A DNA stretch of 64,000 nucleotides from a virus: positions 6,263 through 70,262 of the IMG/VR virus record IMGVR_UViG_3300047476_000779; one strand, given 5' to 3'. Both the position numbers and the translations under genes were made by a program. Shown in pieces: positions 13,652-32,144 of this stretch. Positions within the stretch are counted from its first letter, which is position 1; every line of letters begins with the position of its first letter. The notes beneath the pieces were generated by a model. The model saw only the letters and a program-made list of their open reading frames with translations. It was not told the DNA's origin and did no database searches.

Positions 13652-14227
13652 ATGCGCTTCAAACAAATATTATCAGAATCAGCAACAAGTGAATTAGCAA
13701 ACAAATTGCCTTCGCTTGAAAAGCACGACTATAATACAATTGACCAGCTTATGCGTAAAATAGCAGGTAAGCATAAAATTACCGGAAAAGCATTACATGA
13801 CTTGTTTGTTAAAAAGTTTGGTGATACTCCTGATAGTTGGATTAAAAACAAACTAGACGAAGCGCCAGAAGATTCAGATTTACACAAAGAAGTAGAACAA
13901 TTTACGCAATGGGCTGCCAAAAAGTTAAATGTTAAAAAAATTCCTAAATTTGATTTAAGTACTGACACCCGTGATGCTCAAGACAATCATCATACCGGTA
14001 GTCATCAGATGGGCGGAGATACTGTTTGGGTGTATGTCAAGAACCGTAATTTAGTAGACATTCTACGAACCGTATTCCATGAATTAGTTCATGTACGTCA
14101 AGATGAATTGGGAATGATTGAACCGGGCGACAGTTATCCCGGTAGCCCAATCGAAGCAATGGCAGACATGTTAGCTGGAAAGTATATTAAAATATACGGT
14201 GAAGCTAACCATCACATCTTTCAATAA
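13652..14227 (+). CDS. CTS-bearing HExxH zinc-metalloprotease-like protein
   Basis: N-terminus MRFKQILSE. VFHELVHVRQDE contains the HExxH zincin motif. Confidence 0.5.
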   Translation: MRFKQILSESATSELANKLPSLEKHDYNTIDQLMRKIAGKHKITGKALHDLFVKKFGDTPDSWIKNKLDEAPEDSDLHKEVEQFTQWAAKKLNVKKIPKFDLSTDTRDAQDNHHTGSHQMGGDTVWVYVKNRNLVDILRTVFHELVHVRQDELGMIEPGDSYPGSPIEAMADMLAGKYIKIYGEANHHIFQ

Positions 14228-14253
14228 TAATTAATCTATGCTATACTGCGTAG

Positions 14254-14902: not shown

Positions 14903-15169
14903 ATGTCAGATTACAACCGCACATTCAATAACGAAGCTAAAATTAAATTAACTCAATTAGTCAATGAAGGTATGACAACATTACACGAGATTGACGCACT
15001 TAATGGTGGTCTAAACGATACCATTAAGGCTGTAGCAGAGGAATTAGAAATTAAGGCTTCTACACTAAAGAAAGCAATTAAGATTGCGCACAAAGCAAGT
15101 CTCGGTCAGACTAACAAAGACCATGATGAATTGAACACAATTCTAGAAACAGTAGGAAAAACCCTTTAA
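14903..15169 (+). CDS. hypothetical protein
   Basis: 88-aa ORF with RBS AAGGAGAA. Confidence 0.5.
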   Translation: MSDYNRTFNNEAKIKLTQLVNEGMTTLHEIDALNGGLNDTIKAVAEELEIKASTLKKAIKIAHKASLGQTNKDHDELNTILETVGKTL

Positions 15170-17877
15170 TGTCATATGTTGACGCAATACACAGTAGAGA
15201 TGAGGATCGCATTTTCGTTGTAGAACGTGATGCGAACGGTAAGCGCCAATATAAAGAATTCTCTACTAATTACGTATTCTACTATCCAGATGCGAAGGGT
15301 AAGCAACGTAGTATCTTTAACGAACCTGTAAGTCGTTTTAGTACACGTAAGCGTACAGAGTTCGAAAAAGAAAAGCGAATTCATAGTGGTAAAAAACTAT
15401 ATGAGAGTGACGTTAACGTAGTGTTCCGTTGCTTGAGTGAAAACTACTTAGGTGTTGAACCTCCTAAACTTCACACTTGCTTCTTTGACATTGAGGTAGA
15501 CTTTGATCCTGTTAAGGGCTTTAGTCCTACGTCAGATCCATTCAACCCTGTTACAGCTATCAGTTGTTATCTTGACTGGATGGATACTTGTTTCACATTA
15601 GTCATTGCTCCCAAGCACATGACCAAAGAAACAGCAAAAGAAATCATCGGTGAGTTTGAGAACACACTTCTTTTCGACAATGAAAAGGAAATGTTTGATG
15701 TATTCTTTCAACTAATCGAAGATGCTGACGTACTAACTGGTTGGAACTCAGAGGGCTATGACATACCCTACATGGTCAATCGTGTTACACGTGTAATGAG
15801 TAAGGATGATACTCGCAAGTTTTGCTTGATGGGTCAACTTCCTAAGCCAAGAGAGTACGAACGATTCGGTAAGACAGAAACAACATACGACTTGATTGGT
15901 CGTATTCACCTCGACTACTTGCAACTTTACAAAAAGTATAACTATGAATCTCGTCATAGTTACAAACTTGATGCTATCGGTGAGATGGAAGTCGGTGAGA
16001 ACAAAACTCAGTATGAAGGTACTCTTGACCAATTGTATAACAAAGACTTTAAAAAGTTTATTGAATACAACAGACAAGATACTATGTTGTTGGTCAAGAT
16101 CCACAACAAGTTGAAATTCCTTGATCTAGCGAATGCGCTAGCACACGAGAATACAGTGTTACTGCCCACTGTTATGGGTTCAGTTGCTATGATTGAAATG
16201 GCAATCATGAACGAAGCCCATGAAAGAGGCATGGTAGTTCCTGATAAAAAACGAAAGACTGATAATGATGATGAAATCCAACAAGCGGCAGGTGCCTATG
16301 TTGCTACTCCCAAAAGAGGCTTACACGAATGGGTCGGTGCGGTGGACATCAACTCACTCTACCCCTCAGCAATCAGAGCACTCAACATGGCACCGGAGAC
16401 CATTGTTGCTCAGGTCAGACAGACCCTCACAGACCAGTACATGAAAGAGAAGGGTGCTAAACTCGCCCGTGAAAAGAAGTACTATAAAGAAGGTGACGAT
16501 GATGTGACCGGCGCCATTCTATGGGAAGGTTTGTTTGGTGCGTTAGAGTACACAGCAATCATGAACCAAGAACGTGGCACTATCTTAACTGTTGACTATG
16601 AAGATGGTCGAAGTGTAGAAATGTCTGCGGCAGAAATCTGGAAATTAGTATTTGATAGTCACAAGCCATGGATGCTAAGTGCGAACGGTACAATCTTTAC
16701 GTATGAGAAAGAGGGTGTGATTCCCGGTCTACTCACACGTTGGTACAGTGAACGTAAGAGTATTCAGAAAGAAGCAAAAGCCGCGTATGGTACAGACATG
16801 TACGAATACTATGATAAGCGACAACTTGTTAGAAAGATTTTGCTTAACTCTGCGTATGGCGCACTATTGAATGAACACTGCCGTTTCTATGATAAGCGTA
16901 TTGGTCAATCGGTAACTCTATCAGGTCGTCAGATTGTCAAACATATGATGAGTGTTATTAACGAAACAGTTGAGGGTGTATATTCACACGAAGGAAACGC
17001 AATTGTTTATGGTGATACTGACTCATGCTATTTTACTGCCTACACAACACTTAAAAAGCAAATTGAAGATGGTGAGCTAGAATGGGATAAAGAAACTTGT
17101 ATTGGTTTATATGATGGAATCGCGGATCAAGCGAACCAATCATTCCCTGCATTCTTAGAACGTGCGTTCCATGCTCCTCGCAAGAATGGTGAGATTATCA
17201 AAGCTGGTCGTGAACTGATTGGTGATCGTAGTATCTTCATCACTAAAAAGCGTTATGCTATCAACATATTTGACAAAGAAGGTAAGCGTAAAGACAAAGA
17301 CGGGCAACTAGGTGATATCAAAGCTATGGGTCTTGACTTGAAACGTGCTGATACTCCTAAATACGTACAAGAGTTCTTAATGGACGTATTGGGTATGGTT
17401 CTTCAACATGGTAAACAGCGTGAAGATATCATTGAACGTGTGAAAGAGTTCAAGCGTGTCATGGTAGCACAAGACAGTTGGACTAAAGGGTCTCCTAAGT
17501 CAGTTAATAACTTGACTAAGCACACTATTGCGTTTGAAAAGACTGGTAAGTGTGGTGTTGGACATGCTAGAGCCGCAATCAATTGGAACTATCTACGTAG
17601 AATGAACAGTGACAACTATTCAATGCAGATCGTAGATGGTATGAAAATTGTAGTGTGTAAGTTGAAGCCTAACCCATTAGGATTCAATAGTATCGCATAC
17701 CCAGTAGATGAACTTAGGCTACCGCAGTGGTTCAAAGAATTACCATTCGATGATGCTGAAATGGAAAAGACATTAGTTGACGAAAAAATCGACAACTTAT
17801 TGGGTGTACTTGATTGGGATATCAAGAGCAACATTGATGTTAAATCTACATTTGACGATTTGTTCTCATTTGGTTAA
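15169..17877 (+). CDS. family B DNA polymerase (T4 gp43-like) with 3'-5' exonuclease domain
   Basis: Exo I FFDIEVDF. Pol motif A VDINSLYPSAI. Motif B KILLNSAYG. Motif C YGDTDSCYF. Confidence 0.95.
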   Translation: MSYVDAIHSRDEDRIFVVERDANGKRQYKEFSTNYVFYYPDAKGKQRSIFNEPVSRFSTRKRTEFEKEKRIHSGKKLYESDVNVVFRCLSENYLGVEPPKLHTCFFDIEVDFDPVKGFSPTSDPFNPVTAISCYLDWMDTCFTLVIAPKHMTKETAKEIIGEFENTLLFDNEKEMFDVFFQLIEDADVLTGWNSEGYDIPYMVNRVTRVMSKDDTRKFCLMGQLPKPREYERFGKTETTYDLIGRIHLDYLQLYKKYNYESRHSYKLDAIGEMEVGENKTQYEGTLDQLYNKDFKKFIEYNRQDTMLLVKIHNKLKFLDLANALAHENTVLLPTVMGSVAMIEMAIMNEAHERGMVVPDKKRKTDNDDEIQQAAGAYVATPKRGLHEWVGAVDINSLYPSAIRALNMAPETIVAQVRQTLTDQYMKEKGAKLAREKKYYKEGDDDVTGAILWEGLFGALEYTAIMNQERGTILTVDYEDGRSVEMSAAEIWKLVFDSHKPWMLSANGTIFTYEKEGVIPGLLTRWYSERKSIQKEAKAAYGTDMYEYYDKRQLVRKILLNSAYGALLNEHCRFYDKRIGQSVTLSGRQIVKHMMSVINETVEGVYSHEGNAIVYGDTDSCYFTAYTTLKKQIEDGELEWDKETCIGLYDGIADQANQSFPAFLERAFHAPRKNGEIIKAGRELIGDRSIFITKKRYAINIFDKEGKRKDKDGQLGDIKAMGLDLKRADTPKYVQEFLMDVLGMVLQHGKQREDIIERVKEFKRVMVAQDSWTKGSPKSVNNLTKHTIAFEKTGKCGVGHARAAINWNYLRRMNSDNYSMQIVDGMKIVVCKLKPNPLGFNSIAYPVDELRLPQWFKELPFDDAEMEKTLVDEKIDNLLGVLDWDIKSNIDVKSTFDDLFSFG

Positions 17878-19248: not shown

Positions 19249-19637
19249 TTGATTACGTAATTGGTGGCGAGTACCTAAATGTTACTAGTAACAAAGGTGC
19301 TCAGCCTTATATCAACATGTCTAGTAGTCAGCCTATGATAGGAGCATTGTCATACGACCATAACAGTCAACAGATGAAAGTCTATGACGGTAATGGTTGG
19401 ATGACTATTGGTGGTGGTAGTGCTACTGTCAATTTGAATCCAAATGCTATCTCTGCGCTTCAATGGGTAGAACGAAAAATGCGAGAAGAACAAGAACGAA
19501 ATCGACTTGCTGAAACCAATCCGGCTATTAAAGATTTACTTGACCAAATTAAAGAAAAAGAAGAACAACTTAAAATGGTCATGACTCTAATAAATAGCCC
19601 CGGTGACAATGAAATCAAACCTTCAATGGTACCTTAA
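19245..19637 (+). CDS. hypothetical protein
   Basis: 130-aa ORF, Gly-rich with a C-terminal coiled-coil-like segment. Confidence 0.45.
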   Translation: MIDYVIGGEYLNVTSNKGAQPYINMSSSQPMIGALSYDHNSQQMKVYDGNGWMTIGGGSATVNLNPNAISALQWVERKMREEQERNRLAETNPAIKDLLDQIKEKEEQLKMVMTLINSPGDNEIKPSMVP

Positions 19638-21253
19638 TGACACAAGATAACTTATCACAAAAACAAAATCCAGAATGGGCGTTGTTCTTACCAGCAGTGT
19701 CAAGTTTTTACATTAGCGGCTTGGGTAAACAACGTAAGGGTGAACCTTACTTTGACCAAAATCGCATACCTGCAGGATTTAACAATGATGTTGAAAAACT
19801 AAACTTTCTAAATAGCAAAGAAGGTCTGTATTACTACAAGTGGGGTTTGTACTCTGCTGGGCACGCCAACTTAGATACAACAGTTGACGATCCTAGCGAA
19901 AGTATCATACGTGAACGTGAAGAGGGCACGTTCATGTTGGGTGACAGTGGTGGTTTCCAGATTCTAAAATGTCAGTGGCCTGCTGATTGGAAAGATCCTA
20001 ATTGTCCTCGTGCTATGAAAAAGCGTCAACAAGTGTTGACATGGATGGATACGTACATGGACTATGGTATGTGTTTAGATATACCATCACAATCCTTGAC
20101 TACCTTTCATATCAAAGATCCTAAGACAGTTGAAAAAGATAAAGACGGAAAAGTTATCCCTGGCTCAGGTATATCAGCACACGGTATCAGCACGATTGAA
20201 GAAGCTATTACAGCTACCCATATTAACAACGAGTACTTTGTTAAGAATCGTTCGGGTAAATGTAAGTTCTTAAATGTTCTTCAAGGTCGTAATCATACTC
20301 AATCTAATGATTGGTATGCCGAAATGAAGAAATACTGTGATCCAAATGTCTATCCAGACAATCACTTTAATGGTTGGGCATTCGGGGGTCAGAACAAGAT
20401 TGACATTCACTTGATGCTAACCCGTTTAGTTGATATCATCCATGATGGTTTACTACAAGAAGGCAAGCATGATTTGATTCACTGTTTGGGTACTAGTATC
20501 TTAGAATATGCCGTATTGTTTACTGACATTCAGAAAGCAATTCGCAAACATCACAATCCAAAACTAGTTATCACGTTTGACTGTGCTAGTCCATTCTACA
20601 GTGCGGCTAAGGGCCTTGCTTATTTCAATACAACTATTGAGCATAACAAGAAATGGTCTTATCAAATGGAAAAGACTGTTGACGGTAAACAATATGGTGT
20701 GCCTCAATTAGGTCAACCTGGTGGTGACCAACGTAAGTTTCGTGATGCTGTATTAGCAGATGGTTTCCATAAGACATTTACAGATAGTCCAGTTACTGAT
20801 AAACTACTACTTAGGGACGTGTGCTATCGAGGCCAGGGCTTCTTGGGTGCACATCAAAAAGAAACTAAAACCAGTTGGGATACGTTGAGTTACACATTGA
20901 TTCAGTCGCATAATGTTTGGATGCACATGAATGCTGTTCAAGAGGCTAATCGCCAGTATGAACAAGGTGTTGTGCCCAAGATGATTATGCACAAGTTCGA
21001 AGGTGGACAATTCTTTGCTAACTTGGTAGATGAAATCTTTAGTAAGAAAACTAAACAAGAAGCTATCGATTTAATTAACTATCACAGTAGCTATTGGCTA
21101 CAGTTTCAATCAGGCAGTCAAGGAATCAGCGGTAAGAAAACTATCAATGCTATGACAATGTTTGACCAATTATTTGAAGTAGCTGGTGAACCCGAAGTTG
21201 ATGAAGCCATCGAAGATAGTGATGACGCAATGGCAGAAATATTAGGAGAATAA
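19637..21253 (+). CDS. dpdA: TGT-fold guanine transglycosylase (DpdA-like, DNA 7-deazaguanine insertion)
   Basis: LGDSGGFQ matches the tRNA-guanine transglycosylase catalytic DSGGFQ motif. In phages this fold, clustered with folE/queD/queE, is DpdA. Confidence 0.65.
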   Translation: MTQDNLSQKQNPEWALFLPAVSSFYISGLGKQRKGEPYFDQNRIPAGFNNDVEKLNFLNSKEGLYYYKWGLYSAGHANLDTTVDDPSESIIREREEGTFMLGDSGGFQILKCQWPADWKDPNCPRAMKKRQQVLTWMDTYMDYGMCLDIPSQSLTTFHIKDPKTVEKDKDGKVIPGSGISAHGISTIEEAITATHINNEYFVKNRSGKCKFLNVLQGRNHTQSNDWYAEMKKYCDPNVYPDNHFNGWAFGGQNKIDIHLMLTRLVDIIHDGLLQEGKHDLIHCLGTSILEYAVLFTDIQKAIRKHHNPKLVITFDCASPFYSAAKGLAYFNTTIEHNKKWSYQMEKTVDGKQYGVPQLGQPGGDQRKFRDAVLADGFHKTFTDSPVTDKLLLRDVCYRGQGFLGAHQKETKTSWDTLSYTLIQSHNVWMHMNAVQEANRQYEQGVVPKMIMHKFEGGQFFANLVDEIFSKKTKQEAIDLINYHSSYWLQFQSGSQGISGKKTINAMTMFDQLFEVAGEPEVDEAIEDSDDAMAEILGE

Positions 21254-21254
21254 T

Positions 21255-21467
21255 ATGCCGTATACTAGTAGAATTAGAACTCTGGAAGAATCATATAGAT
21301 TAGTAGAGAATCAATTGTTCCAATTAGAGAAGTCAGGTAGCACAGATTCTGATAAAATGACACAATTGCGTGAAGCAAAAGAAAAGTACCTTAATGAACT
21401 ACGTCACATGCGTAGGGCACAATGGGATAATGACCACGAAACTGTTGACCTTGGAGATGATAGATGA
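21255..21467 (+). CDS. hypothetical protein
   Basis: 70-aa ORF. Confidence 0.4.
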   Translation: MPYTSRIRTLEESYRLVENQLFQLEKSGSTDSDKMTQLREAKEKYLNELRHMRRAQWDNDHETVDLGDDR

Positions 21468-21919
21468 ACGAGCAACATGAACAAGCACTTGCTGAACAAC
21501 GAGCAAGAATTAAAGACAAAGCCAAACGAATGATCTGGGTAACCTTCAACAAAGAAGGTATCCATCGCTACCCGGCTGCAAGTACCGACCCGAAACTCGC
21601 ATCGGGTGACGAGTATGATGTTAGCTTCTTGGGTATGCCACACAGACATATCTTCCACTTTACAGTGGGGATTCAAGTATTTCATAATGACCGTGATATT
21701 GAATTCATCCAGTTTAAACGCTGGCTTGAGAACCTTTACAAAGAAGGTACTCTGGAACTCAATTTCAAGTCATGTGAAATGATTAGCGATGACCTTTATG
21801 AACAAATCGCTAGTCGCTATACAGGGCGTGACGTTGAAATCACTGTTTCCGAAGACAATGAAAACGGCGCTACAATCTGTTATAATACAACTCAACCTTA
21901 TCAATCACTCGCTATTTAA
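21464..21919 (+). CDS. hypothetical protein in deazaguanine cluster
   Basis: 151-aa ORF directly downstream of the TGT-like gene. Confidence 0.45.
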   Translation: MNEQHEQALAEQRARIKDKAKRMIWVTFNKEGIHRYPAASTDPKLASGDEYDVSFLGMPHRHIFHFTVGIQVFHNDRDIEFIQFKRWLENLYKEGTLELNFKSCEMISDDLYEQIASRYTGRDVEITVSEDNENGATICYNTTQPYQSLAI

Positions 21920-21933
21920 AAGGAAATATTAAA

Positions 21934-22143
21934 ATGGCAAAACCAAAACTCTCCGGTACTTTCAGCACTGAGAATCGCATTTTTGATGACTTGGAAAAGT
22001 ATCTAGAATTCTGTCAAGACTTCGGATACAAATATGACGAATCAACACTATACGACATGCGTAGTTTCGTATTCCGTCAATATCAAAAACATGCCTCAGG
22101 CAAACAAGCTAAGTACTGCTGGGAAGAAGCAATTATTCGATGA
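21934..22143 (+). CDS. hypothetical protein
   Basis: 69-aa ORF with RBS AAGGAAATA. Confidence 0.4.
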   Translation: MAKPKLSGTFSTENRIFDDLEKYLEFCQDFGYKYDESTLYDMRSFVFRQYQKHASGKQAKYCWEEAIIR

Positions 22144-22898
22144 AAATAGTAATTGTCACTGGTGGGTTCGACCCACTACACAGCGGACACATTGAATATT
22201 TCAAGGCCGCACGACAACTCGGTGATATGTTAATCATCGGGTTGAACAGTGACGAATGGTTGACTCGTAAAAAAGGTCAACCTTTTATGCCTTTCACTGA
22301 ACGCTTGTCAATTGTCCGTAATTTAAATATGGTAGATTGGGTTATCGATTTTGATGACTCTGACAATAGCGCAATATGTGCGATTCAGAAAGTAAAAGAA
22401 CGATACCCTAACGACAATATTATTTTTGCCAACGGCGGAGACCGTACCAAAGACAATATACCTGAAATGATTTTTGAAGATGTAGATTTCATGTTTGGGG
22501 TAGGTGGAAATGACAAAATGAATTCAAGTAGCTGGATTCTACATGAATGGAAAAACCCGAAAACCGTGAGGTCATGGGGTTATTATCGTATACTACATGA
22601 TGTACAGGGCTGTAAGGTTAAAGAATTGACTGTAGATCCGGGGAAAAGTTTAAGCATGCAACGACACAAACAACGCAATGAATATTGGTTAGTTAGTGAG
22701 GGTAAATGTGATGTGTTATCAATGATGAACAACGGATACAAATTACCAACACAAACATTAACACAGCACAACTCATATAAAATTCCTGCAGGTGATTGGC
22801 ATCAGCTAAGTAATCCATATAGCGAACCGTGTAGAATTGTAGAAATTCAATATGGTGAGTTATGTGTAGAAGAAGATATAGAAAGAAAAGATGCGTAA
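22140..22898 (+). CDS. HldE-domain-II-like heptose-1-phosphate adenylyltransferase fused to a cupin domain
   Basis: IVTGGFDPLHSGHIEYFKAARQLGDMLIIGLNSDEW closely parallels RfaE/HldE domain II (GCFDILHAGH...VAVNSD). The C-terminus has the cupin pattern (RHKQRNEYWLVSEGK ... PAGDWHQLSNP). Confidence 0.65.
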   Translation: MKIVIVTGGFDPLHSGHIEYFKAARQLGDMLIIGLNSDEWLTRKKGQPFMPFTERLSIVRNLNMVDWVIDFDDSDNSAICAIQKVKERYPNDNIIFANGGDRTKDNIPEMIFEDVDFMFGVGGNDKMNSSSWILHEWKNPKTVRSWGYYRILHDVQGCKVKELTVDPGKSLSMQRHKQRNEYWLVSEGKCDVLSMMNNGYKLPTQTLTQHNSYKIPAGDWHQLSNPYSEPCRIVEIQYGELCVEEDIERKDA

Positions 22899-24078
22899 AT
22901 TATATTACATGGGCCTAGAACCCTACAAAGCACGTTACACCCTTCAACTAACAGAGTGGAATGAACGTGTATTTAAACTACGAGGCATCAATTATGAAAT
23001 CGTGCCCGGAGATACTCTTTCAACTGACCAGCAAATCGTAACAGGTCAAGTGCTTGATGCGCACGGCCGTAGTTATTTTGGTATGAGTCAGTTGATGAAC
23101 TTAGTTAAATTGATGAAGGAAGGTAAGGTAACCAGTGAAGATGTTATCTACTTTGAAGACATGTTCCAGCCGGGCTTTGAAGCGTTGCCTTATATTCTTA
23201 ATCAAGTGCCCGAGACACATCGTCCAAAACTCTTTGCTCGTTGCCTCGCGCAGTCTATCGATCCTGACGATTTTGTCCATGTCTGGGGAATGTCGCGGTG
23301 GATGGGCCTCTACGAGAAAATGGTTTGTGAGGCAGTACGTGACAGTGGCGGTGCAATCCTTGCGACTAATGAAGAAATGGTCATGAATATGAAGATCGCA
23401 GGCTGGGAAGCCCCGATCTACAATATCAGTGGTTTAGCATTCGGTAAAGATGAAGTACAGAGTCGTGTAGGTACTATCAAACCATTCAGTGAACGCAAAC
23501 ATCGTGTTGTTTTTTCAGCACGTTGGGATCAAGAGAAGCAACCAGACTTCTACATGGATATTATTGAAGCATATTTCAAACGTCATCCTGTCAGTGCTGT
23601 TGAATTTTGTGTCTGCGCTGGCAGTAAATTAAAGTCTAACAATGACAGCTATATGGAACGTACCCGTACCTTACAATCTATCGGATTGCTTAAAGTTTAT
23701 GAGGATCTAGAAAAGAATGCTTATTATAATATTGTCAACGATAGCCGTGTTGTATTTAATTGTGCGTTACAAGACTGGGTCTCGAATACTGTCTCGGAAG
23801 CTGATGCTCTTGGTTGTAACGTCCTATATCCTGCTTATCGTAGTTTCCCTGAAACTTTTGCCAACGATGCCACTAGAATGTACATACCTTGGTCTATCGA
23901 GGATGCCCTTGATAAGCTGGAACGGTTGCTAAAGAAACCCAGTGAATACATGGGAGCAATATCAGATTATAACAATGGTACGATTGATCGTATCGTTGAT
24001 ATACTAGAAGGCGGTGGACAGAGTATGTTGAGAATGTCTACCGATTACAGAAAACATACCCGCGAATCAAAATATTAA
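22891..24078 (+). CDS. GT-B fold glycosyltransferase (GT4-like)
   Basis: C-terminal RVVFSARWDQEK ... SEADALGCNVLYP matches the GT-B donor-binding region (E-x7-E like). Confidence 0.5.
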   Translation: MRKLYYMGLEPYKARYTLQLTEWNERVFKLRGINYEIVPGDTLSTDQQIVTGQVLDAHGRSYFGMSQLMNLVKLMKEGKVTSEDVIYFEDMFQPGFEALPYILNQVPETHRPKLFARCLAQSIDPDDFVHVWGMSRWMGLYEKMVCEAVRDSGGAILATNEEMVMNMKIAGWEAPIYNISGLAFGKDEVQSRVGTIKPFSERKHRVVFSARWDQEKQPDFYMDIIEAYFKRHPVSAVEFCVCAGSKLKSNNDSYMERTRTLQSIGLLKVYEDLEKNAYYNIVNDSRVVFNCALQDWVSNTVSEADALGCNVLYPAYRSFPETFANDATRMYIPWSIEDALDKLERLLKKPSEYMGAISDYNNGTIDRIVDILEGGGQSMLRMSTDYRKHTRESKY

Positions 24079-24088
24079 GGAGAAAATT

Positions 24089-24286
24089 ATGAGCGCACAT
24101 GACGATATCAAAACACAATTGGCAGCATACGAAGCCGAAAATGACAAGTTCGTTAAAGGTAATGCGGCAGCAGGCACACGTGCCCGCAAAGCATTAGCAG
24201 AACTAGCTAAAGCGGTTAAAGCACGCCGTAATGAAATTACAGCAGAAAAAGCTGCACGTGCTGAAGAAAAAGCAAAGGCTAAGTAA
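24089..24286 (+). CDS. small Ala/Lys-rich basic protein (nucleoid-associated/histone-like?)
   Basis: 65 aa: GNAAAGTRARKALAELAKAVKARR ... AEEKAKAK. Confidence 0.4.
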   Translation: MSAHDDIKTQLAAYEAENDKFVKGNAAAGTRARKALAELAKAVKARRNEITAEKAARAEEKAKAK

Positions 24287-24288
24287 TC

Positions 24289-24483
24289 ATGGCAACCCGC
24301 AAAACTAAAAAAGTTGCGGGTCCCTCTGTAGTTAAAGGGACCCATCTAACAGTCACAACTGACGAAAATGGTAAAACAACACTAGAGTGGGATGACGAAC
24401 AACTGTTGAAAGAAGTTCGTGAAGCCATTGCTAGCGTGACAGAGGCACCCGTAAAAAAGTCTCGAAAAAAGAAGTCAGCATAA
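24289..24483 (+). CDS. small basic protein
   Basis: 64 aa with Lys-rich termini. Confidence 0.4.
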   Translation: MATRKTKKVAGPSVVKGTHLTVTTDENGKTTLEWDDEQLLKEVREAIASVTEAPVKKSRKKKSA

Positions 24484-24547
24484 ATAAGTATGTCACACAA
24501 CGGTGACAACAATACAAAACTCATATCCGCGTAAGGAAGGATTCTAT

Positions 24548-25225
24548 ATGTCATATAACAAAACAAAAACCGACCCCGAATTAGGTCAACAAGTTCACGA
24601 ACATCTGGTTAAGATGGGTGTTGAAACTCCAATAAAAAAACGTAATCTAGATCGAAAAGAACAGATTGATATCATTGAAGGTAACTTTGCTGAAATCATG
24701 CGAGTTTTAGGGTTAGATTTAACTGATGACAGTCTTATTGATACGCCAAAACGTGTTGCTAAGATGTATGTCAATGAAATTTTCTGGGGTTTAGATTATG
24801 AAGCATTTCCAAAGTGTACCACCGTTGACAATAAAATGCACTACAACGAAATGGTCGTTGAGCGTAACGTGTCAGTACAAAGTAATTGCGAACATCATTT
24901 TGTTGTTATCGACGGCTTGGCTACTGTTGCTTATGTTCCTAAGCAAAAGGTACTTGGTCTGTCAAAAATCAACCGCATTGTTGAATATTTCAGTAAACGG
25001 CCTCAAATACAAGAGCGACTTACTGAACAAATCTTCCATACCCTACAATATATACTTGAGACTGAAGATGTAGCAGTTATGATTGACGCACAGCACTATT
25101 GTGTAAAATCACGTGGTGTAGAAGATACAGGTTCAAGTACAGTTACTTGTCGCTTAGGTGGCGGATTCAAGACTGACCCTGCGGCACGTGCCGAATTCTT
25201 ACAGATTGCTAACAAGGGTAAGTAA
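24548..25225 (+). CDS. folE: GTP cyclohydrolase I (FolE)
   Basis: SNCEHHFVVIDG ... YVPKQKVLGLSKINRIVEYFSKRPQIQERLT is the classic FolE signature. ATG at 24548 with an AAGGAAGG RBS. The ORF track starts it at GTG 24503. Confidence 0.9.
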   Translation: MSYNKTKTDPELGQQVHEHLVKMGVETPIKKRNLDRKEQIDIIEGNFAEIMRVLGLDLTDDSLIDTPKRVAKMYVNEIFWGLDYEAFPKCTTVDNKMHYNEMVVERNVSVQSNCEHHFVVIDGLATVAYVPKQKVLGLSKINRIVEYFSKRPQIQERLTEQIFHTLQYILETEDVAVMIDAQHYCVKSRGVEDTGSSTVTCRLGGGFKTDPAARAEFLQIANKGK

Positions 25226-25425
25226 TGATTACCGAACACTTTAAAAAACAAATAGAAGCAGGCACTGAAATCTTCTTCTATGGATTAGAAAGAACACCTG
25301 AACAAGAAGGCGGTATCGTTGCCAGCATTATGAGACACAAAGGATCATTGGATAGTTTCCCCACTAATCTAGAGTTTGTTAGGATGATGACTGAAAATAC
25401 TCCGTTGTTTAAGGAAGTAGCATGA
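25225..25425 (+). CDS. hypothetical protein
   Basis: 66-aa ORF overlapping the folE stop. Confidence 0.4.
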   Translation: MITEHFKKQIEAGTEIFFYGLERTPEQEGGIVASIMRHKGSLDSFPTNLEFVRMMTENTPLFKEVA

Positions 25426-25449
25426 TAAACCTACTAATAATTTTAGTCG

Positions 25450-25815
25450 TTGTCGCAATCGCTGTGTCAATCGTTCGTAGATTACCCGGTGGATGTCAGC
25501 GTGATTGCAATCAGGGGCGTAACTGTGACTGCCAAGACAAGCGTTGAACTTATTCAAGAAGCCGCAGAACGGATCAGAAATGATCCTGTAAAGCTCAAAG
25601 AGTTCATGCGTAAGGTCATGGGCCCTCCCAAACGAGTACTAGAAGGTGCCGAGCGTGAGCATATGCTTACTGTGTTCAAACTCATCGAACCAGTACGCAC
25701 AACAAACAATCAAAGGTCATTCACTGATGAATATGTACATGCCGGAAAGATGTATGATGTTCATTATTTTGAAGGTGAAACAGTAGTAGAGGAATATTTA
25801 GATGAGGAATCTTAA
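25450..25815 (+). CDS. hypothetical protein (start uncertain)
   Basis: 121-aa ORF. A 41-aa membrane ORF (25422..25547) overlaps its 5' end in another frame. Confidence 0.35.
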   Translation: MSQSLCQSFVDYPVDVSVIAIRGVTVTAKTSVELIQEAAERIRNDPVKLKEFMRKVMGPPKRVLEGAEREHMLTVFKLIEPVRTTNNQRSFTDEYVHAGKMYDVHYFEGETVVEEYLDEES

Positions 25816-25993
25816 ATTAGTTGACGCAGTAATCGCACTGCATGAGATTCGTAGAACAGTAGAAGAAGAATGCGGTAAGTGTAGACTAAGCATAGAGATT
25901 GAACGCATCGCAGATCAGTTACATCAAATGTCTATTCAAGATGCCAAGAACGTTGTAGTTGTTAAAGACATTATCAACAAGGCAAAAGAATGA
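25802..25993 (+). CDS. hypothetical protein
   Basis: 63-aa ORF. Confidence 0.35.
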   Translation: MRNLKLVDAVIALHEIRRTVEEECGKCRLSIEIERIADQLHQMSIQDAKNVVVVKDIINKAKE

Positions 25994-26463
25994 TATTCAA
26001 CCATGTTAAAAAACTTAAACAAGAAGGCAAGCGTATTGGAATCACGTTTAGCACATTTGACTTGCTACATGCGGGACATATTGCTATGCTTAGTGAGGCA
26101 AGAAACCACTGTGACTACCTCATATGCGGTCTTCAAACAGACCCCACTATCGATAGGCCAGAGACTAAGAATAAACCGATACAAAGTATTGTCGAACGTC
26201 AGATACAACTGGCGGCTTGCCGTTATGTTGATGAAGTTGTTGTGTACAGTACCGAACAAGACTTGGTTGACCTCTTACTTATTCTCCCGGTCGATGTTAG
26301 AATTCTCGGCGTCGAATATGCTGACAAAAATTTCACCGGCAAAAGTGAGTGCGACCTCAGAGGGATCGACATTGTATACAACGGTAGAGATCACTCCTTT
26401 AGTTCCAGTAGCTTACGTAAACGTGTCTATGATAGTGAGTCCAACAAAAGAGGACAACAATGA
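25990..26463 (+). CDS. cytidylyltransferase-like nucleotidyltransferase (HldC/TagD-like)
   Basis: GITFSTFDLLHAGHIAMLSEAR contains the GxFDxxHxGH motif. Confidence 0.7.
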   Translation: MIFNHVKKLKQEGKRIGITFSTFDLLHAGHIAMLSEARNHCDYLICGLQTDPTIDRPETKNKPIQSIVERQIQLAACRYVDEVVVYSTEQDLVDLLLILPVDVRILGVEYADKNFTGKSECDLRGIDIVYNGRDHSFSSSSLRKRVYDSESNKRGQQ

Positions 26464-26765
26464 GTAATTTTTACGATTCATTCATGAGTAAATTCGGTGT
26501 CAAACATGTCAGGACATTGCGAGACCGTGATTACCGAACGATCAATTACGGTACTTATAATCAAACTGCTAGTTACTATGCTGACCGTGACGAACTAATT
26601 GAAATGGAACTCACACGCACTGGTTTTGAAAATTTAGTAAATCTAGACCACGAGACTGAAAAGGTATGGCAAGACCAGCGTGATGAAGCATACTTGCGTA
26701 GAACATACCCTGCAGTAGCAGAAGCGTATAGTAAATATAAAATGCTTTTGGAACTATATAAGTAA
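26460..26765 (+). CDS. hypothetical protein
   Basis: 101-aa ORF. Confidence 0.45.
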   Translation: MSNFYDSFMSKFGVKHVRTLRDRDYRTINYGTYNQTASYYADRDELIEMELTRTGFENLVNLDHETEKVWQDQRDEAYLRRTYPAVAEAYSKYKMLLELYK

Positions 26766-26805
26766 AATTTGGTAAATAGATATAGCGGTCTCGGCGTCAT
26801 CCCGC

Positions 26806-26834
26806 TTGAAAAATTCTGCCGCCTATGCTACAAT
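26806..26834 (+). promoter_or_regulatory. sigma70-like promoter TTGAAA-17-TACAAT upstream of queD
   Basis: -35 at 26806-26811, -10 at 26829-26834. ATG at 26851 with an AGGAGAAAAT RBS. Confidence 0.5.
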
Positions 26835-26850
26835 TAACATAGGAGAAAAT

Positions 26851-27351
26851 ATGCATAATCCAATTACATACAAATATACAAGTACTAAAGAGTACCATGA
26901 CGCATTCCCATGCGCTTATCGTCAGTGGCGTGCTGACAGTCATTGTAATACTATTCACGGTTATAGTTTCAGTATGAAATTCTATTTCGGTACAAACGAT
27001 TTAGACGTTCGTAACTGGGCAGCCGATTACGGTGGGTTGAAAGAACTGAAAAAGATTCTTGAGGATCAGTTTGACCACACATTGTTAGTAGCACAAGATG
27101 ACCCTGAACTTGAAACATTCAAACTGTTACAAGAAAAGAAGATGGCTAAACTAACTATTTTGCCTCGCTTAGGTTGCGAAAGTCTTGCTGATATGCTTTA
27201 CAAATATGTCAATGGTGTTTACATCCCTGATATGTGGGGTGAAGGTGAAGCAAAGCGTCTATGGTGCTATCGTGTTGAAGTACGTGAGACACAGAGCAAC
27301 ATGGCTTTCCGTGAAGGTCACCGAGAATGGAATGAGGACTTGTTTACATGA
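26851..27351 (+). CDS. queD: 6-carboxy-5,6,7,8-tetrahydropterin synthase (QueD)
   Basis: CNTIHGYSF (Cx3HGH-type) and FDHTLL motifs of the QueD/PTPS family. Confidence 0.8.
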   Translation: MHNPITYKYTSTKEYHDAFPCAYRQWRADSHCNTIHGYSFSMKFYFGTNDLDVRNWAADYGGLKELKKILEDQFDHTLLVAQDDPELETFKLLQEKKMAKLTILPRLGCESLADMLYKYVNGVYIPDMWGEGEAKRLWCYRVEVRETQSNMAFREGHREWNEDLFT

Positions 27352-27545
27352 ACAAACTAACATATGATGAATGGCTTGAAAAATGCGGTGGGAAGTTGAA
27401 AGATAATCAATTTCAGACCGCGCAAGAAATGATATCCGATTTTCAGAAATTTCACAGACTATCTTTACAAGACGAAATTGATATGATAAATCAATCAGAA
27501 TATCAGTTATATCTACAGCGAGTTGATGCAGGAGTTGAAGAATGA
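27348..27545 (+). CDS. hypothetical protein
   Basis: 65-aa ORF. Confidence 0.4.
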   Translation: MNKLTYDEWLEKCGGKLKDNQFQTAQEMISDFQKFHRLSLQDEIDMINQSEYQLYLQRVDAGVEE

Positions 27546-28717
27546 CAAAAACTGTAGCAGTCATCGGTGCCGGTATTACCGGTATCACTACAGCATATTA
27601 CCTTGCTAAAAAAGGTTATAGTGTAACTGTCTACGAACAAGAACCACATGCGGCAATGCGTACTAGCTTTGCCAATGGTGGACAAATATCAGTTAGTAAC
27701 AGTGAAGTCTGGACTACATGGAGTAACGTCAAGAAGGGCATCAAGTGGCTCTTTAAGAAAGATGCTCCGTTGTTGATTCGTCCTCGTTTAGATTATCGTC
27801 AATGGAAGTGGATCGCAAAGTTTCTATACAATACTGCTACAAATCAGTATGAAAAGAACACTAGCGAAACAATTAAGATGGGTCTAGAATCTAGTAAGTT
27901 GTACAAAGAAATTATGTACACAGAAAAACTAAGTTTTGACCAATCACCTTCAGGTATTCTTCACTTCTACAAAGATAAACAATACTTTGAAGCCGCAAAA
28001 CAAGCACAATACATCTATCGTAAGAACGGTTGTGAGTGGGATATAGTTGACACACAACGAGTTAAGGAGTTAGATAGTACACTAGAAAATGTTGAGGGTA
28101 TCGTAGGTGGTGCGTGGACATTGGGTGATTGGACTGGTGACATTCATAAGTTTTGTATAGACCTTGAGCGTGTGTTGAAGAAGAAATACGGAGTAACTTT
28201 TATTTACAATTCAGTAACTACTAAAGATACAATGCTACAATTAGTCAATTTGTATGATGCTGTAGTTGTATGTGCAGGTGTAGGTAGTGTTGACATTGCT
28301 AACAGTGTAGGTGATACGTTAGACATTTACCCAGTCAAAGGTTACAGTATTACTATCAATAACGTAGATAAGAAACATTTGCCTGTCGTTAGTTTGTTAG
28401 ATGACCAAGCAAAGATTGTTACTGCAAGTTTAGGTAATCGTTTCCGTGTTGCAGGTACTGCTGAACTAGCAGGTGAGAACTATGATATCCGTCATGATAG
28501 AGTCAAGCCATTGCTAGATTGGGTAAGAACTAATTTCCCTAATATGGATACTAGTGATTACAGTAGTTGGGCATGTCTCAGGCCAATGACTCCGAACATG
28601 ATGCCTATTACCAAACGTAGTGACAAGAATGATAAAGTGTACTATAATACAGGACATGGTCACTTAGGTTGGACATTAGGTCCAGTAACAGCAAAACAAA
28701 TTGCGGAAATGATATGA
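27542..28717 (+). CDS. FAD-dependent oxidoreductase, D-amino-acid dehydrogenase (DadA)-like
   Basis: VAVIGAGITGITTAYYLAKKGYSVTVYEQE (GxGxxG). Along its length it matches DadA blocks (IKWLF...APLL, YPVKGYSITI, LRPMTP, NTGHGHLGWT). Confidence 0.7.
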   Translation: MTKTVAVIGAGITGITTAYYLAKKGYSVTVYEQEPHAAMRTSFANGGQISVSNSEVWTTWSNVKKGIKWLFKKDAPLLIRPRLDYRQWKWIAKFLYNTATNQYEKNTSETIKMGLESSKLYKEIMYTEKLSFDQSPSGILHFYKDKQYFEAAKQAQYIYRKNGCEWDIVDTQRVKELDSTLENVEGIVGGAWTLGDWTGDIHKFCIDLERVLKKKYGVTFIYNSVTTKDTMLQLVNLYDAVVVCAGVGSVDIANSVGDTLDIYPVKGYSITINNVDKKHLPVVSLLDDQAKIVTASLGNRFRVAGTAELAGENYDIRHDRVKPLLDWVRTNFPNMDTSDYSSWACLRPMTPNMMPITKRSDKNDKVYYNTGHGHLGWTLGPVTAKQIAEMI

Positions 28718-29562
28718 GTCAAATAAAAATTTCAGAATTATTCTATTCAATTCAAGGTGAAGGTAAATTCATGGGAGTCCCGAGTGTGTTTTTACGCACG
28801 TTCGGGTGTAACTTTGAATGTAATGGCTTTGGGTTGTCTAAAGGTGAAAAGAGTACAGAGAGAGATACAATTGCGATTAAAGCAGAAACTTATACAGATT
28901 ATAAATCCTTACCGCTTGTCAGCACGGGATGTGATAGTTATGCATCTTGGGACCCTCGTTTCAAACATCTTAGTCCTGTGCTCGATTCCGATACTATTGC
29001 TAACAGCATTGTTGATACACTTCCTCGAGGTCGTTGGATGGATGAGCACTTGGTTATCACGGGCGGCGAACCGCTTCTCGGATGGCAAAGAGCGTATCCT
29101 GACTTACTTTCGCACGATAAGATGAAATCATTGAAGGAGATGACGTTTGAGACAAACGGCACTCAACATATAAGTGAGGACTTCACTAAGTATCTACGTG
29201 AATGGCAACGTAATCGTGCTAAAGATGCGATTACATTCAGTGTAAGTCCTAAACTCAGTATCAGCGGTGAAAAGTGGGAAGATGCTATCTGTCCCGAAGT
29301 TATCGCACAATACAAGGTTCATGGTTTCGTATATCTCAAATTTGTTGTAGCAACTAAAGAAGATGTGAAAGAAGCTGAACAAGCAGTAGATGAGTATCGC
29401 AAGAAAGGTTTTACTGGTCCTGTATACTTGATGCCATGCGGTGGCGTTGAATCTATCTATAGTTTGAATGCACGTAACGTAGCAATTGAAGCGATGAACC
29501 GAGGTTGGCGCTATAGTGATAGACTACAAGTGCCGTTGTTTAAGAATGAATGGGGTACATGA
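28714..29562 (+). CDS. queE: 7-carboxy-7-deazaguanine synthase (QueE, radical SAM)
   Basis: FYSIQGEGKFMGVPSVFLRTFGCNFEC and HLVITGGEPLL parallel E. coli QueE (FQTLQGEGYFTGVPAIFIRLQGC ... VVITGGEP). ATG 28714 overlaps the upstream stop. Confidence 0.8.
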   Translation: MSQIKISELFYSIQGEGKFMGVPSVFLRTFGCNFECNGFGLSKGEKSTERDTIAIKAETYTDYKSLPLVSTGCDSYASWDPRFKHLSPVLDSDTIANSIVDTLPRGRWMDEHLVITGGEPLLGWQRAYPDLLSHDKMKSLKEMTFETNGTQHISEDFTKYLREWQRNRAKDAITFSVSPKLSISGEKWEDAICPEVIAQYKVHGFVYLKFVVATKEDVKEAEQAVDEYRKKGFTGPVYLMPCGGVESIYSLNARNVAIEAMNRGWRYSDRLQVPLFKNEWGT

Positions 29563-29747: not shown

Positions 29748-29974
29748 TGGAAGACGGACCTCAAACATATGATCCATTCAAGCATAGATGTATTGGCACT
29801 GAATACAAGTTTACTTGGTTACCGCAGACGTGCCACATCACCGGAAAAAAGTTGTGGCTAAAACATGCGTATAGACAAACAGCAATGATTGTGGGCCCTG
29901 GAGACTCTATATTTGATTTTCGATGGTACCAAAAGGATGCGTTCTTGATAGCAAGATTAAAAGGTATAGTATGA
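29741..29974 (+). CDS. hypothetical protein
   Basis: 77-aa ORF. Confidence 0.35.
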   Translation: MVMEDGPQTYDPFKHRCIGTEYKFTWLPQTCHITGKKLWLKHAYRQTAMIVGPGDSIFDFRWYQKDAFLIARLKGIV

Positions 29975-31323
29975 AATTGTATAGTAAACGAATCGCATTT
30001 TTAATCAGTGACCAGCATTTTATTCCGCATGGTGGCATCGGTAGTTTCTGTAAGAGTTTTACAGAAATGTCTAGTAGACTAAACTGGAAAGTTGATATTA
30101 TACTTGACAAAGCTCCAAACAATGACAGGTTTAAAGATTTAATTGAAGAAGCTGGTGCCAATATCATATGGCCTTTAGAACCACTGCGATACAACAATCA
30201 CACCGCAACATTTGCGTTTAGTGACACTATCAACTTTGAAAAGATTATCAACTTCCGTACAGCATTGTTGGAAGCATTTGAAGAAAATGTATACGACATG
30301 ATTGTGTGTAACACACAAGAAGCAATGACAGCGGCATATGCTATGACAGTCAACAAGTATATTCCTGTTGTGTTCTATACACATTTACATTCAATGATTT
30401 TCCGCGACAGTCAAGGTAGCGATGTGTTTTTAGACAGTTATCATAACTTCTATAACAAGCACATGGAATTCACTGATATCATCATTGGTACACAGAGTCA
30501 AAAGAACATCGATGAATTAACAAAATACGGAGCAACTAATTGTCAGTTGCTTCCCATGCCCATGAGCGAACGCGGGTTGCTCACTGAGAGTGGATTGACT
30601 AGTAAAGGCGTATTATTCATCGGCCGCTGGGAAGAAGGCAAGAACCCAGAAGCATACATTCGTGCTATGAAAGAATGCCAGTTGCCCTGTAAAGTAATGA
30701 CTAATAGTAACGGTGCTAAGAAATTTGAGAAGGCATTTGCTGAGGCAGGTATCACTGACTACGAAATTCGTGCAGGCATTACCGGACAAGAGAAAGTAAA
30801 TTTCATTCATAGTGCTAGCGTGTTCTTTATGCCCAGCTTGCGTGAGAACTATCCTTTCGCATTCTTAGAATGCTTGGGTCATATGCCTTGCGTAGTTTTA
30901 GATTCACAAGATTGGTCAGACAACTTTGATAGCAAGTATTTTCACAAAGTCAATATCAAAGATGCCGGTAACAAAATCAAAGAACTGTATGGGTCAGCGC
31001 AAGTCAATGGTGCGTTAGACTATGTAAAACAACTTGACTATCAGGTAGCTTTCAAATGGAATAAGTTCTTAGATGATTTTGTAGGGAAACGTAGTAATAC
31101 TAATGCCGCTAAGATTAACACATTTGAAACAGTCAAGTATCGTGACTATATTAAAGATTTAGAGCGAAAACATCTAGCACGTGAAGATTTTGAATCTGTG
31201 CTATCAAACAAATATAAGTTTACTACTGTTTGGTACACTGATACAGATACCTATCTTAGCAAAGATCCAACTTATAAACCAGTAGAGGAAGAAACAGGAT
31301 TGAGCCTGTTCGAGGGACTATGA
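29971..31323 (+). CDS. GT-B fold glycosyltransferase (GT4-like)
   Basis: ATG 29971 overlaps the upstream stop. C-terminal FIGRWEEGKNPE ... PSLRENYPFAFLECLG resembles the GT-B donor-binding region. Confidence 0.5.
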   Translation: MKLYSKRIAFLISDQHFIPHGGIGSFCKSFTEMSSRLNWKVDIILDKAPNNDRFKDLIEEAGANIIWPLEPLRYNNHTATFAFSDTINFEKIINFRTALLEAFEENVYDMIVCNTQEAMTAAYAMTVNKYIPVVFYTHLHSMIFRDSQGSDVFLDSYHNFYNKHMEFTDIIIGTQSQKNIDELTKYGATNCQLLPMPMSERGLLTESGLTSKGVLFIGRWEEGKNPEAYIRAMKECQLPCKVMTNSNGAKKFEKAFAEAGITDYEIRAGITGQEKVNFIHSASVFFMPSLRENYPFAFLECLGHMPCVVLDSQDWSDNFDSKYFHKVNIKDAGNKIKELYGSAQVNGALDYVKQLDYQVAFKWNKFLDDFVGKRSNTNAAKINTFETVKYRDYIKDLERKHLAREDFESVLSNKYKFTTVWYTDTDTYLSKDPTYKPVEEETGLSLFEGL

Positions 31324-32144
31324 AAAAAATCTTAATTACAGGAAACAGCGGATACATCGGTAGTCATTTGACTAAGATGTTAAAAGATGAATATATTATT
31401 CATGGCATGGATATGAATCAACCACAGATTCAACCAGTTACTCATCATTATAATGACATTCGCAAGCCTATTGATATAGCAGAAGAATATGATTGTGTCA
31501 TTCATTTGGCTGCTTTAGTTAATGTAGGTGAAAGTGAACAGATCCCTATTCAATACTACATTACTAATTTAAATGGTACAATGAATGTATTGAACAAGAT
31601 CAAGACTAAGAATTTTGTCTTTGCGAGTACAGGTGCCGCAGTAGGTTGTGAAAGTGCTTATGGTATTAGTAAACGTGCCGCCGAAGATGTAGTATGTGAA
31701 TATTGTACCGCGCACAATCCAAAAGACTATACAATCTTTAGGTTCTACAATGTGATTGGTAGTGATGGATTCGCTCCAACTAATCCCGATGGATTAATGT
31801 ATAACTTATTGAAAGCTAAAGAATCAGGTGAGTTTACTATCTTTGGTAAAGACTATGATGTAAGTCCTGACGGAACATGTATTCGTGATTATGTTCACGT
31901 AAATGAGATTTGTGATGCTTTAAAGCAAGCGATTGAAAAGCCAAGTTACAAGGTAGAATCATTGGGACATGGTGTAGGTTATACTGTTCGTGAGATTGTT
32001 AGTATGTTTCAGAACGTAAATGATACAGACTTTGATGTAAAATACGGCCCAAGAAGAAAGGGCGACCTTGCTAGTAGTGTACTAGAAGATGTGTCGCCCT
32101 ATATGCGTAACTTGTATACGATGGAACAGTTGTTAAAAGTTTAA
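31320..32144 (+). CDS. NAD-dependent sugar epimerase/dehydratase (extended SDR)
   Basis: ILITGNSGYIGSHL is a Rossmann GxxGxxG. YGISK is the catalytic YxxxK. Confidence 0.7.
   Translation: MKKILITGNSGYIGSHLTKMLKDEYIIHGMDMNQPQIQPVTHHYNDIRKPIDIAEEYDCVIHLAALVNVGESEQIPIQYYITNLNGTMNVLNKIKTKNFVFASTGAAVGCESAYGISKRAAEDVVCEYCTAHNPKDYTIFRFYNVIGSDGFAPTNPDGLMYNLLKAKESGEFTIFGKDYDVSPDGTCIRDYVHVNEICDALKQAIEKPSYKVESLGHGVGYTVREIVSMFQNVNDTDFDVKYGPRRKGDLASSVLEDVSPYMRNLYTMEQLLKV

Follow-up and report, generated by a model that had tools for sequence, protein, structure and literature searches.

The DNA of the Cellulophaga phages phiST, phi13:1, and phi19:2 contains 2'-deoxy-7-deazaguanine, abbreviated dDG; in phiST, essentially all G is replaced (PMC10516641). 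phiST encodes FolE, QueD, QueE, the transglycosylase DpdA3, and CGPG_00067, a QueD paralog that Hutinet et al. named DpdL in 2023 and in which the CxxxHGH motif of QueD is changed to LxxxHRHxF (PMC10516641). DpdL, whose relation to QueD was recognized by HHpred, occurs in phages that have DpdA, FolE, QueD, and QueE without QueC, and it was proposed to decarboxylate 7-carboxy-7-deazaguanine (CDG) to 7-deazaguanine (PMC10516641). Here, we analyze a locus with the same biosynthetic set without QueC, located in a 64-kb stretch of the IMG/VR virus record IMGVR_UViG_3300047476_000779 (termed the window), in which a gene for a DadA-like flavoenzyme also lies between queD and queE. We conclude that the region is probably a guanine replacement module of an uncultured jumbo phage akin to the PA5oct/Phosso/Vibrio 2.275.O group, with dDG as its product. 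The predicted base is already known; the new part consists of an unannotated family of DpdA-like proteins and of a glycosyltransferase-like companion, here called GT4-like.

A deazaguanine module that recurs in metagenomic and IMG/VR contigs

The window appears to belong to a large phage genome, with nearly all genes on the plus strand and a G+C content of ∼0.40. Its family B DNA polymerase (PolB, positions 15169 to 17877) is 43 to 49% identical to those of the jumbo phages Phosso, Atu_ph07, and Vibrio 2.275.O and of RaK2-like phages. No match to the block was obtained when a phage collection was searched by megablast. Metagenome contigs contain copies of the block that are identical or nearly so, and relatives lie on contigs of at least 350 kb. 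Since this arrangement of genes is found again in dozens of metagenomic and IMG/VR contigs, the genes of the module are not chance open reading frames (ORFs). Conservation was counted over the 35 relatives whose loci span the DpdA-like gene to queE, and all 35 contain the genes for the DpdA-like protein, DpdL, a 69-amino-acid (aa) ORF, the GT4-like protein, FolE, a small nucleotidyltransferase (NT157), QueD, and QueE (Table 1).

From the sequence of the window, the original prediction had read this region as a 7-deazaguanine DNA modification gene set, naming a protein with the fold of tRNA-guanine transglycosylases (TGT), FolE, QueD, and QueE. All four genes are present as described, on the plus strand, and together with a DpdL homolog in the same block they support that reading. 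FolE, at 327 bits, passes the NF006824 equivalog cutoff of 202, and it matches PF01227 (3e-61). QueD matches PF01242 with 62 bits (6e-17; cutoff, 22.4) and phrog_2389 (3.5e-37), and it shares 44% identity with QueD from Iggy, a dPreQ0 phage, and 33% with QueD from phiST. The QueE-like protein matches phrog_2076 over its full length (1e-52), scores below the cutoffs of all NCBIfam QueE models, and is 33% identical to the annotated QueE of PA5oct, gp322. It has the N-terminal QueE signature ELFYSIQGEG and a split cysteine motif of the radical S-adenosylmethionine (radical-SAM) type, made of C-x3-C, an insertion, and then CDS.

The window QueD has Y/F and Y at the positions of two zinc histidines of the Escherichia coli enzyme. 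The idea that it is aberrant was rejected: the QueDs of Iggy and phiST carry the same C-x3-H-G-Y, so the window protein is an ordinary phage QueD. In all three phage proteins, Y/F replaces the zinc ligand His16 of E. coli QueD, and the metal site of phage QueDs may differ from the textbook CxxxHGH site.

A DpdL homolog in a locus without QueC

Among all ORFs of ≥100 aa in the 64-kb window, none has a Pfam domain of QueC (PF06508) or QueF, in agreement with the earlier remark that neither gene lies near the module. The consequences that had been drawn from the QueC gap, namely, that the end product may be another one or that a TilS-like PP-loop enzyme may stand in for QueC, are not supported, because one of the ORFs in 21255..22143, a segment listed as small unknown ORFs, encodes a DpdL homolog. 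By tblastn, this protein is 61% identical to PA5oct gp318 (2e-44), 54% identical to ACP17 ASD50405 (7e-41), and 33% identical to phiST CGPG_00067 (1.6e-12; match placed on that locus tag). Its version of the DpdL signature LxxxHRHxF reads LGMPHRHIF (residues 56 to 64, with L56, H60, R, H62, and F64). The motif is kept in 42/42 distinct relatives, and the histidines H34, H60, and H62 are invariant. A Pfam hmmscan of the DpdL homolog gave no PTPS match; hhalign placed it in register with a single E. coli QueD, with a weak E value of 0.005.

The companion pattern described for DpdL (DpdA, FolE, QueD, and QueE, without QueC) thus holds within the 64-kb window, and judged by its sequences the block appears to carry the published dDG gene set. 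We propose that QueC is lacking in the window because the DpdL homolog routes CDG toward dDG, the predicted product.

The PP-loop protein itself (14254 to 14850, 198 aa) was rejected as a replacement for QueC, since it matches TilS structures and not QueC. It matches PF01171 and the TilS structure PDB 1wy5 (8e-17) and is a stand-alone homolog of the TilS catalytic N-domain without the tRNA-binding domains. Its gene was not found in the fetched relative loci, including the one that covers the region upstream of PolB (L003), few of these loci reaching this position.

An unannotated DpdA-like family within the TGT superfamily

In published work, a recognizable DpdA is held to be encoded by all phages that carry genes for deazaguanine synthesis. 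The first protein of the module, of 538 aa, contains DSGGFQ, identical to the motif of bacterial Tgt, but it has no match in Pfam (including PF01702, TGT), PHROGs, or NCBIfam, and neither single-sequence nor profile searches against PDB sequences returned anything. Its fold was resolved through structure prediction and fold search. An AlphaFold model built from a 51-sequence alignment reached a predicted local distance difference test score of 87 and a predicted template modeling score of 0.86. The top 27 Foldseek matches of this model in the PDB were all TGTs, followed by a clear gap. The best structural match was the DNA enzyme DpdA. The model therefore has the TIM-barrel TGT fold that the original prediction had supposed, and it appears to resemble DpdA more than tRNA-specific Tgt. 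Compared with the bacterial DpdA of Salmonella Montevideo (PDB 7UI4), the window protein shows 13% identity and is longer by ∼125 residues, some of which form an acidic, disordered tail; a canonical zinc motif cannot be recognized, and partner genes for DpdB and DpdC are absent from the window.

Among predicted viral structures (BFVD), the nearest named Foldseek matches were a Motura "tRNA guanine transglycosylase" and the DpdA2-type protein of Vibrio phage nt-1 (R9TGF0, 2e-9), and phiST DpdA3 was matched weakly (E value of 5e-3). DpdA2, the type of the Schizotequatroviruses (Vibrio phages nt-1 and GR11A), is the closest named phage subfamily, but it gave no direct sequence match with the 538-aa protein. 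DpdA2 phages have preQ0/preQ1 pathways that include QueC.

Sequence searches revealed a large family. Two database searches yielded >7,500 and ∼1,600 relatives, among them proteins of Phosso and Vibrio phage 2.275.O, and PA5oct gp316 is a relative with 33% identity. When 1.84 billion cluster representatives were searched with a profile, 1,140 clusters were recovered at an E value of ≤0.001. The family, with ∼1,140 clusters at 50% identity and thousands of members on contigs of up to ∼0.5 Mb, is missed by Pfam, PHROG, and NCBIfam. The family lies outside the coverage of current profile libraries. Distant members show faint, subthreshold matches to the Pfam TGT family (PF01702, E values of 0.006 to 0.04) and are linked by BLAST to E. 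coli Tgt, Iggy DpdA, phiST DpdA3, and the candidate DpdA of ACP17; one family member also matched the TGT domain protein of the Schizotequatrovirus GR11A (4e-5). Because of the fold search and of these links to Tgt and DpdA, we consider the 538-aa protein to be a genuine member of the TGT superfamily that, as modeled, is structurally closest to DpdA.

We also looked at the catalytic residues in a family alignment of 51 members, 32 to 95% identical to the window protein. D103, in DSGGFQ, and D315, in FDCASP, are invariant and are candidates for the general acid/base and the nucleophile, respectively (compare Asp95 and Asp256 of DpdA). hhalign placed the QG, GG, and FDC motifs of the family in register with E. 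coli Tgt and paired FDCASP with FDCVMP. D148 is likewise invariant and falls, by sequence order only, where the base recognition aspartate is expected (Asp130 of DpdA). In DpdA, the aspartates to which D103, D315, and, going by order, D148 would correspond were found to be essential by mutagenesis (PMC10164549).

Table 1 Features of the module and its neighbors in the window
Feature	Positions	Strand	Family match or remark	Relatives
DpdA-like DNA-guanine transglycosylase (candidate), 538 aa	19637..21253	+	Unannotated family within the TGT superfamily	35/35
70-aa ORF	21255..21467	+	No family match	18/35
DpdL homolog, 151 aa, proposed CDG decarboxylase	21464..21919	+	phrog_17812	35/35
69-aa conserved ORF	21934..22143	+	No family match	35/35
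Cytidylyltransferase-like domain plus cupin (mannose-6-P isomerase C-terminal type)	22140..22898	+	PF01467 (3e-14), PF01050 (1.2e-20)	21/35
GT4-like (GT-B) protein, 395 aa	22891..24078	+		35/35
FolE, GTP cyclohydrolase I	24548..25225	+	NF006824, PF01227	35/35
NT157, small cytidylyltransferase-family nucleotidyltransferase, RfaE domain II-like	25990..26463	+	PF01467 (9e-13)	35/35
QueD, 6-carboxytetrahydropterin synthase, phage type	26851..27351	+	PF01242, phrog_2389	35/35
65-aa ORF between queD and the DadA-like gene	27348..27545	+	Cluster I10; 4-nt overlaps at both ends
DadA-like FAD-dependent amino acid dehydrogenase, 391 aa	27542..28717	+	PF01266, NF009074	3/35
QueE-like radical-SAM 7-carboxy-7-deazaguanine synthase	28714..29562	+	phrog_2076	35/35
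GT466, GT1-family glycosyltransferase-like	29923..31323	+	PF00534 (1.6e-5, below cutoff)	33/35
NAD-dependent sugar epimerase/dehydratase	31320..32144	+	PF01370 (1.8e-30)	33/35

Comparison with phiST and PA5oct and the proposed pathway

The window and phiST have in common a DpdL with LxxxHRHxF, a QueD with C-x3-HGY, and a transglycosylase of the TGT superfamily. They differ in this last enzyme, which has 538 aa in the window and 259 aa in phiST (DpdA3), without pairwise BLAST similarity between the two, and phiST lacks the GT4-like, nucleotidyltransferase, and epimerase genes that are conserved around the window module. The Wroclawvirus PA5oct has an orthologous order, PolB, structural protein, DpdA-like protein (gp316), GT4-like protein (gp317), DpdL (gp318), and QueE (gp322), in its gp316-gp322 region. 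The PA5oct block is devoid of FolE, DadA, and sugar nucleotide genes, and the QueD of this phage is encoded elsewhere in its genome. According to a 2025 preprint, PA5oct DNA withstands enzymes having G in GA/GG contexts, and nucleases directed at G-modified phages attack it; the authors of the preprint noted QueE and a PTPS protein and named no transglycosylase (PMC12191111). Our assignment of gp316 as a transglycosylase follows from the orthology of the PA5oct block to the window block, and the DpdA-like family in this way supplies a candidate transglycosylase for PA5oct-like therapeutic Pseudomonas phages.

We propose that FolE converts GTP into dihydroneopterin triphosphate, which QueD would turn into 6-carboxytetrahydropterin and QueE into CDG. 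There would be no QueC step; the DpdL homolog would instead decarboxylate CDG to 7-deazaguanine, and the DpdA-like protein would swap this base for guanine in the phage DNA after replication; in this reaction, D315 would be the nucleophile, and D103 would serve as the general acid/base. The resulting dDG would block host restriction enzymes, and the DadA-like gene would be separate metabolic cargo dropped into a hypervariable queD-queE junction. The predicted base is directly testable, as PA5oct and Phosso are cultured.

Several observations weigh against this scheme. The decarboxylase activity of DpdL is putative, and E. coli coexpressing DpdL with DpdA, taken either from phiST or from ACP17, produced no dDG (PMC10516641). 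Substrate specificity is not confidently transferable from phiST, because the enzyme of this phage belongs to another subfamily, DpdA3, and the G modification of PA5oct is known from the behavior of its DNA toward nucleases. QueC could be encoded elsewhere in the phage genome, since the window represents 64 kb out of ∼350 kb, and CDG could be diverted to preQ0 by a QueC of the host. In the 538-aa sequence, we see no CxCxxC...H zinc motif like that of TGT and DpdA; in the corresponding region of the family, C396 is near-invariant and H425 and H430 are invariant. Finally, DadA-like genes are found next to queD more often than random placement would give (see below).

The inserted base could then be other than 7-deazaguanine, either CDG itself (yielding dCDG) or preQ0/ADG made with the help of a host QueC, and the DpdL homolog would be employed otherwise. 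Phages commonly rely on host Que enzymes. Besides the unproven activity of DpdL, this reading can draw on the small amounts of CDG that DpdA2 put into DNA in queC-less E. coli (PMC10516641) and on PA5oct, which encodes just QueD and QueE (PMC12191111). We nevertheless find it unlikely, since the strong conservation of DpdL, present in every relative with its motif intact in every distinct sequence, argues that the protein acts in the pathway, and since dDG was detected in all three DpdL-bearing Cellulophaga phages analyzed (PMC10516641). We therefore favor dDG as the product of the window module.

A GT4-like protein accompanies the transglycosylase and DpdL

The GT4-like protein has a weak Pfam match to Glyco_trans_1_2, and its PDB profile matches are marginal and all to glycosyltransferases of the GT-B/GT4 type. 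Its profile found ACP17 ASD50404 (8e-18; positions 12192 to 13220 of locus L211) and PA5oct gp317 (1.8e-15; positions 13617 to 14678 of locus L001), each of which is lodged between a DpdA-type gene and dpdL. Hence, DpdA-type and DpdL genes have a GT4-like companion in three phage lineages distant from one another, represented by the window clade, PA5oct, and ACP17. After the failure to obtain dDG from DpdA and DpdL alone, the authors of that study suspected that a factor was missing (PMC10516641). The GT4-like protein may be an unknown helper in the dDG pathway, and we nominate it as a candidate for this missing factor, whose absence may explain the failed reconstitution.

Other genes related to sugars and nucleotides surround the module. 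NT157, a conserved neighbor of queD, scores 81.6 bits with TIGR02199, below the cutoff. The link of the cupin fusion, GT466, and the epimerase to the module is unproven; the nucleotidyltransferases, the second glycosyltransferase-like protein, and the epimerase may reflect inherited synteny or may contribute to a further elaboration of the base. The 64-kb window encodes three nucleotidyltransferases of the cytidylyltransferase family in total (1568 to 3046, 22140 to 22898, and 25990 to 26463), one of them fused to a cupin.

These genes raise the question of whether the deazaguanine receives a sugar or a sugar-phosphate, either ahead of its insertion or afterward, through the action of the GT4-like protein together with the nucleotidyltransferases, second glycosyltransferase, and epimerase. 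Such a decoration would fit the GT4-like gene residing beside DpdA-type and DpdL genes in three lineages, the occurrence of NT157, GT466, and the epimerase in 33 to 35 of the 35 relatives, and the insufficiency of DpdA and DpdL for dDG formation (PMC10516641). We regard it as quite improbable, because C7 of 7-deazaguanine lacks an obvious acceptor group, the GT4-like gene of PA5oct and ACP17 has no nucleotidyltransferase or epimerase genes nearby, colinearity inside one clade may simply be inherited, and the glycosyltransferase family assignments are weak. We have similarly little confidence in a broader version, in which the GT4-like protein is an essential third component of QueC-less deazaguanine systems that make a sugar-decorated or otherwise extended, undescribed 7-deazaguanine, which in the DNA of these abundant jumbo phages would be inserted by a hitherto unrecognized sixth DpdA subfamily. 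The original prediction had also suggested an undescribed derivative, with the DadA-like protein among the points behind it; a role of DadA in the pathway is not supported, and the conserved GT4-like protein and nucleotidyltransferase would be better candidates if there is such a derivative at all.

The DadA-like gene occupies a hypervariable cargo slot

The DadA-like protein matches PF01266 (DAO family) with 203.8 bits (7e-60; cutoff, 27.9), and its N-terminal GxGxxG motif for binding flavin adenine dinucleotide (FAD) reads VIGAGITG. It had been described as matching DadA along its length, and the alignment with NF009074 is indeed full length (residues 3 to 391 on model positions 2 to 403), but the score of 450.7 bits falls just below the equivalog cutoff of 494. 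The oxidase domain of MnmC had been named as the only precedent, in tRNA, for an FAD/DAO-family enzyme acting on a modified base; the similarity to TIGR03197 is confined to residues 4 to 45, i.e., the N-terminal FAD-binding motif. With bacterial DadA (NF009074/PRK12409), the window protein shares its full length, the DAO fold, the GxGxxG motif, and 45 to 53% identity to genes of aquatic bacteria, from which it differs by being phage borne, mobile between genome positions, and below the equivalog cutoff. As had been noted, the gene is translationally coupled between queD and queE: 4-nucleotide (nt) ATGA overlaps join queD to a previously unlisted 65-aa ORF, this ORF to the DadA-like gene, and the latter to queE. 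The 65-aa ORF (cluster I10) was found only in L005 to L007, which are copies of the same phage.

Conservation of the module does not extend to the DadA-like gene. It is missing from 32 of the 35 loci, all of which keep the core module, and among the relatives sampled through queE it occurs in 6 of the 66 loci with upstream DNA. The gap between queD and queE (27351 to 28714 in the window) ranges from 9 bp to 5.2 kb across relatives (loci L089 to L167), where it houses genes for a class II aldolase, Bax1-I, PsiE, or an endonuclease VII-like nuclease and, further, for a Vut_1/YhhQ-family protein (a queuosine precursor transporter family), a radical-SAM/SPASM protein, a methyltransferase, or a GMP reductase-like protein. 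The queD-queE junction is a hypervariable cargo slot.

IMG/VR contains at least 142 relatives of the DadA-like protein, for which we retrieved 80 loci and read the neighborhoods 10 kb on each side. The gene was found after queD with or without queE, between the ribonucleotide reductase genes nrdA and nrdB, after an NT5C-like nucleotidase gene, beside a KdsA-like gene and UvdE, and in further contexts. In a neighbor-joining tree of 67 loci, 33 are queD adjacent, 18 are nrd or NT5C adjacent, and 16 belong to other contexts, and these contexts are thoroughly interleaved. The nearest cellular homologs (45 to 53% identity) come from metagenome-assembled genomes assigned to Pelagibacterales, other Alphaproteobacteria, and SAR86, where they are chromosomal and stand alone; no que genes were found around them, and the bacterial neighborhoods gave no functional hint. 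The closest "bacterial" match (61%) lies on a 6.3-kb contig binned as Crocinitomicaceae (L168), which may be a misbinned phage fragment.

We conclude that the DadA-like gene is separately acquired accessory cargo, probably outside the base modification pathway. The simplest reading is that aquatic bacteria were the source of an auxiliary metabolic gene that has been shuffled among plastic positions in these phage genomes and whose product most likely acts in the host as an oxidase of free D-amino acids or of a similar amine. The case illustrates that a striking gene adjacency, here between queD and queE, can result from cargo insertion rather than from a step in a pathway. An activity of the flavoenzyme toward a deazaguanine intermediate or the modified base in DNA, which would give an undescribed derivative, seems very unlikely to us. 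The coupling in the window phage and the presence of queD within three ORFs upstream in 33/67 DadA loci from viral contigs speak for such an activity, and, since this adjacency exceeds random placement, a functional link keeps a small probability. It is contradicted by the absence of the gene from most syntenic relatives with the core module, by the unrelated PsiE, Bax1-I, endonuclease VII, class II aldolase, and GMP reductase-like genes that fill the slot elsewhere, by the nrdA-nrdB and other contexts interleaved on the tree, by the full-length, near-cutoff match to the bacterial DadA model, by the lack of que neighbors around cellular homologs, and by PA5oct, ACP17, and phiST, none of which has a DadA gene.

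As for the substrate of the TGT-fold protein, the exact bacterial Tgt motif DSGGFQ would suit a modification of host or phage tRNA, but we infer that DNA is the substrate and deem tRNA highly implausible, given the structural match of the model to DpdA, the lack of tRNA genes in the 64-kb window, the location of homologs in replication gene neighborhoods, the G-modified DNA of PA5oct (PMC12191111), and the fact that DpdL-type pathways are known for DNA only (PMC10516641).

Other genes in the window

A 2-oxoglutarate-Fe(II) oxygenase gene (PF13640, 17935 to 18501) lies between the DNA polymerase gene and the DpdA-like block, and it is also present in the relative loci L003 and L004. A 65-aa ORF at 24089 to 24286 has an identical copy on L005 with a precomputed match to Pfam Hc1 (PF07432). 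A proteostasis set at 53723 to 59395 comprises a ClpX-like ATPase, Hsp20, a ClpS adaptor, and a ClpP protease, with a SprT-like protein nearby. The window further encodes (34331 to 35365, 9503 to 9943, 44856 to 46202, and 11484 to 13042) a UvdE UV endonuclease, a Dps/ferritin-like protein, an ATP-dependent DNA ligase, a class I chitinase-like protein (GH19), and a staphylococcal nuclease homolog.

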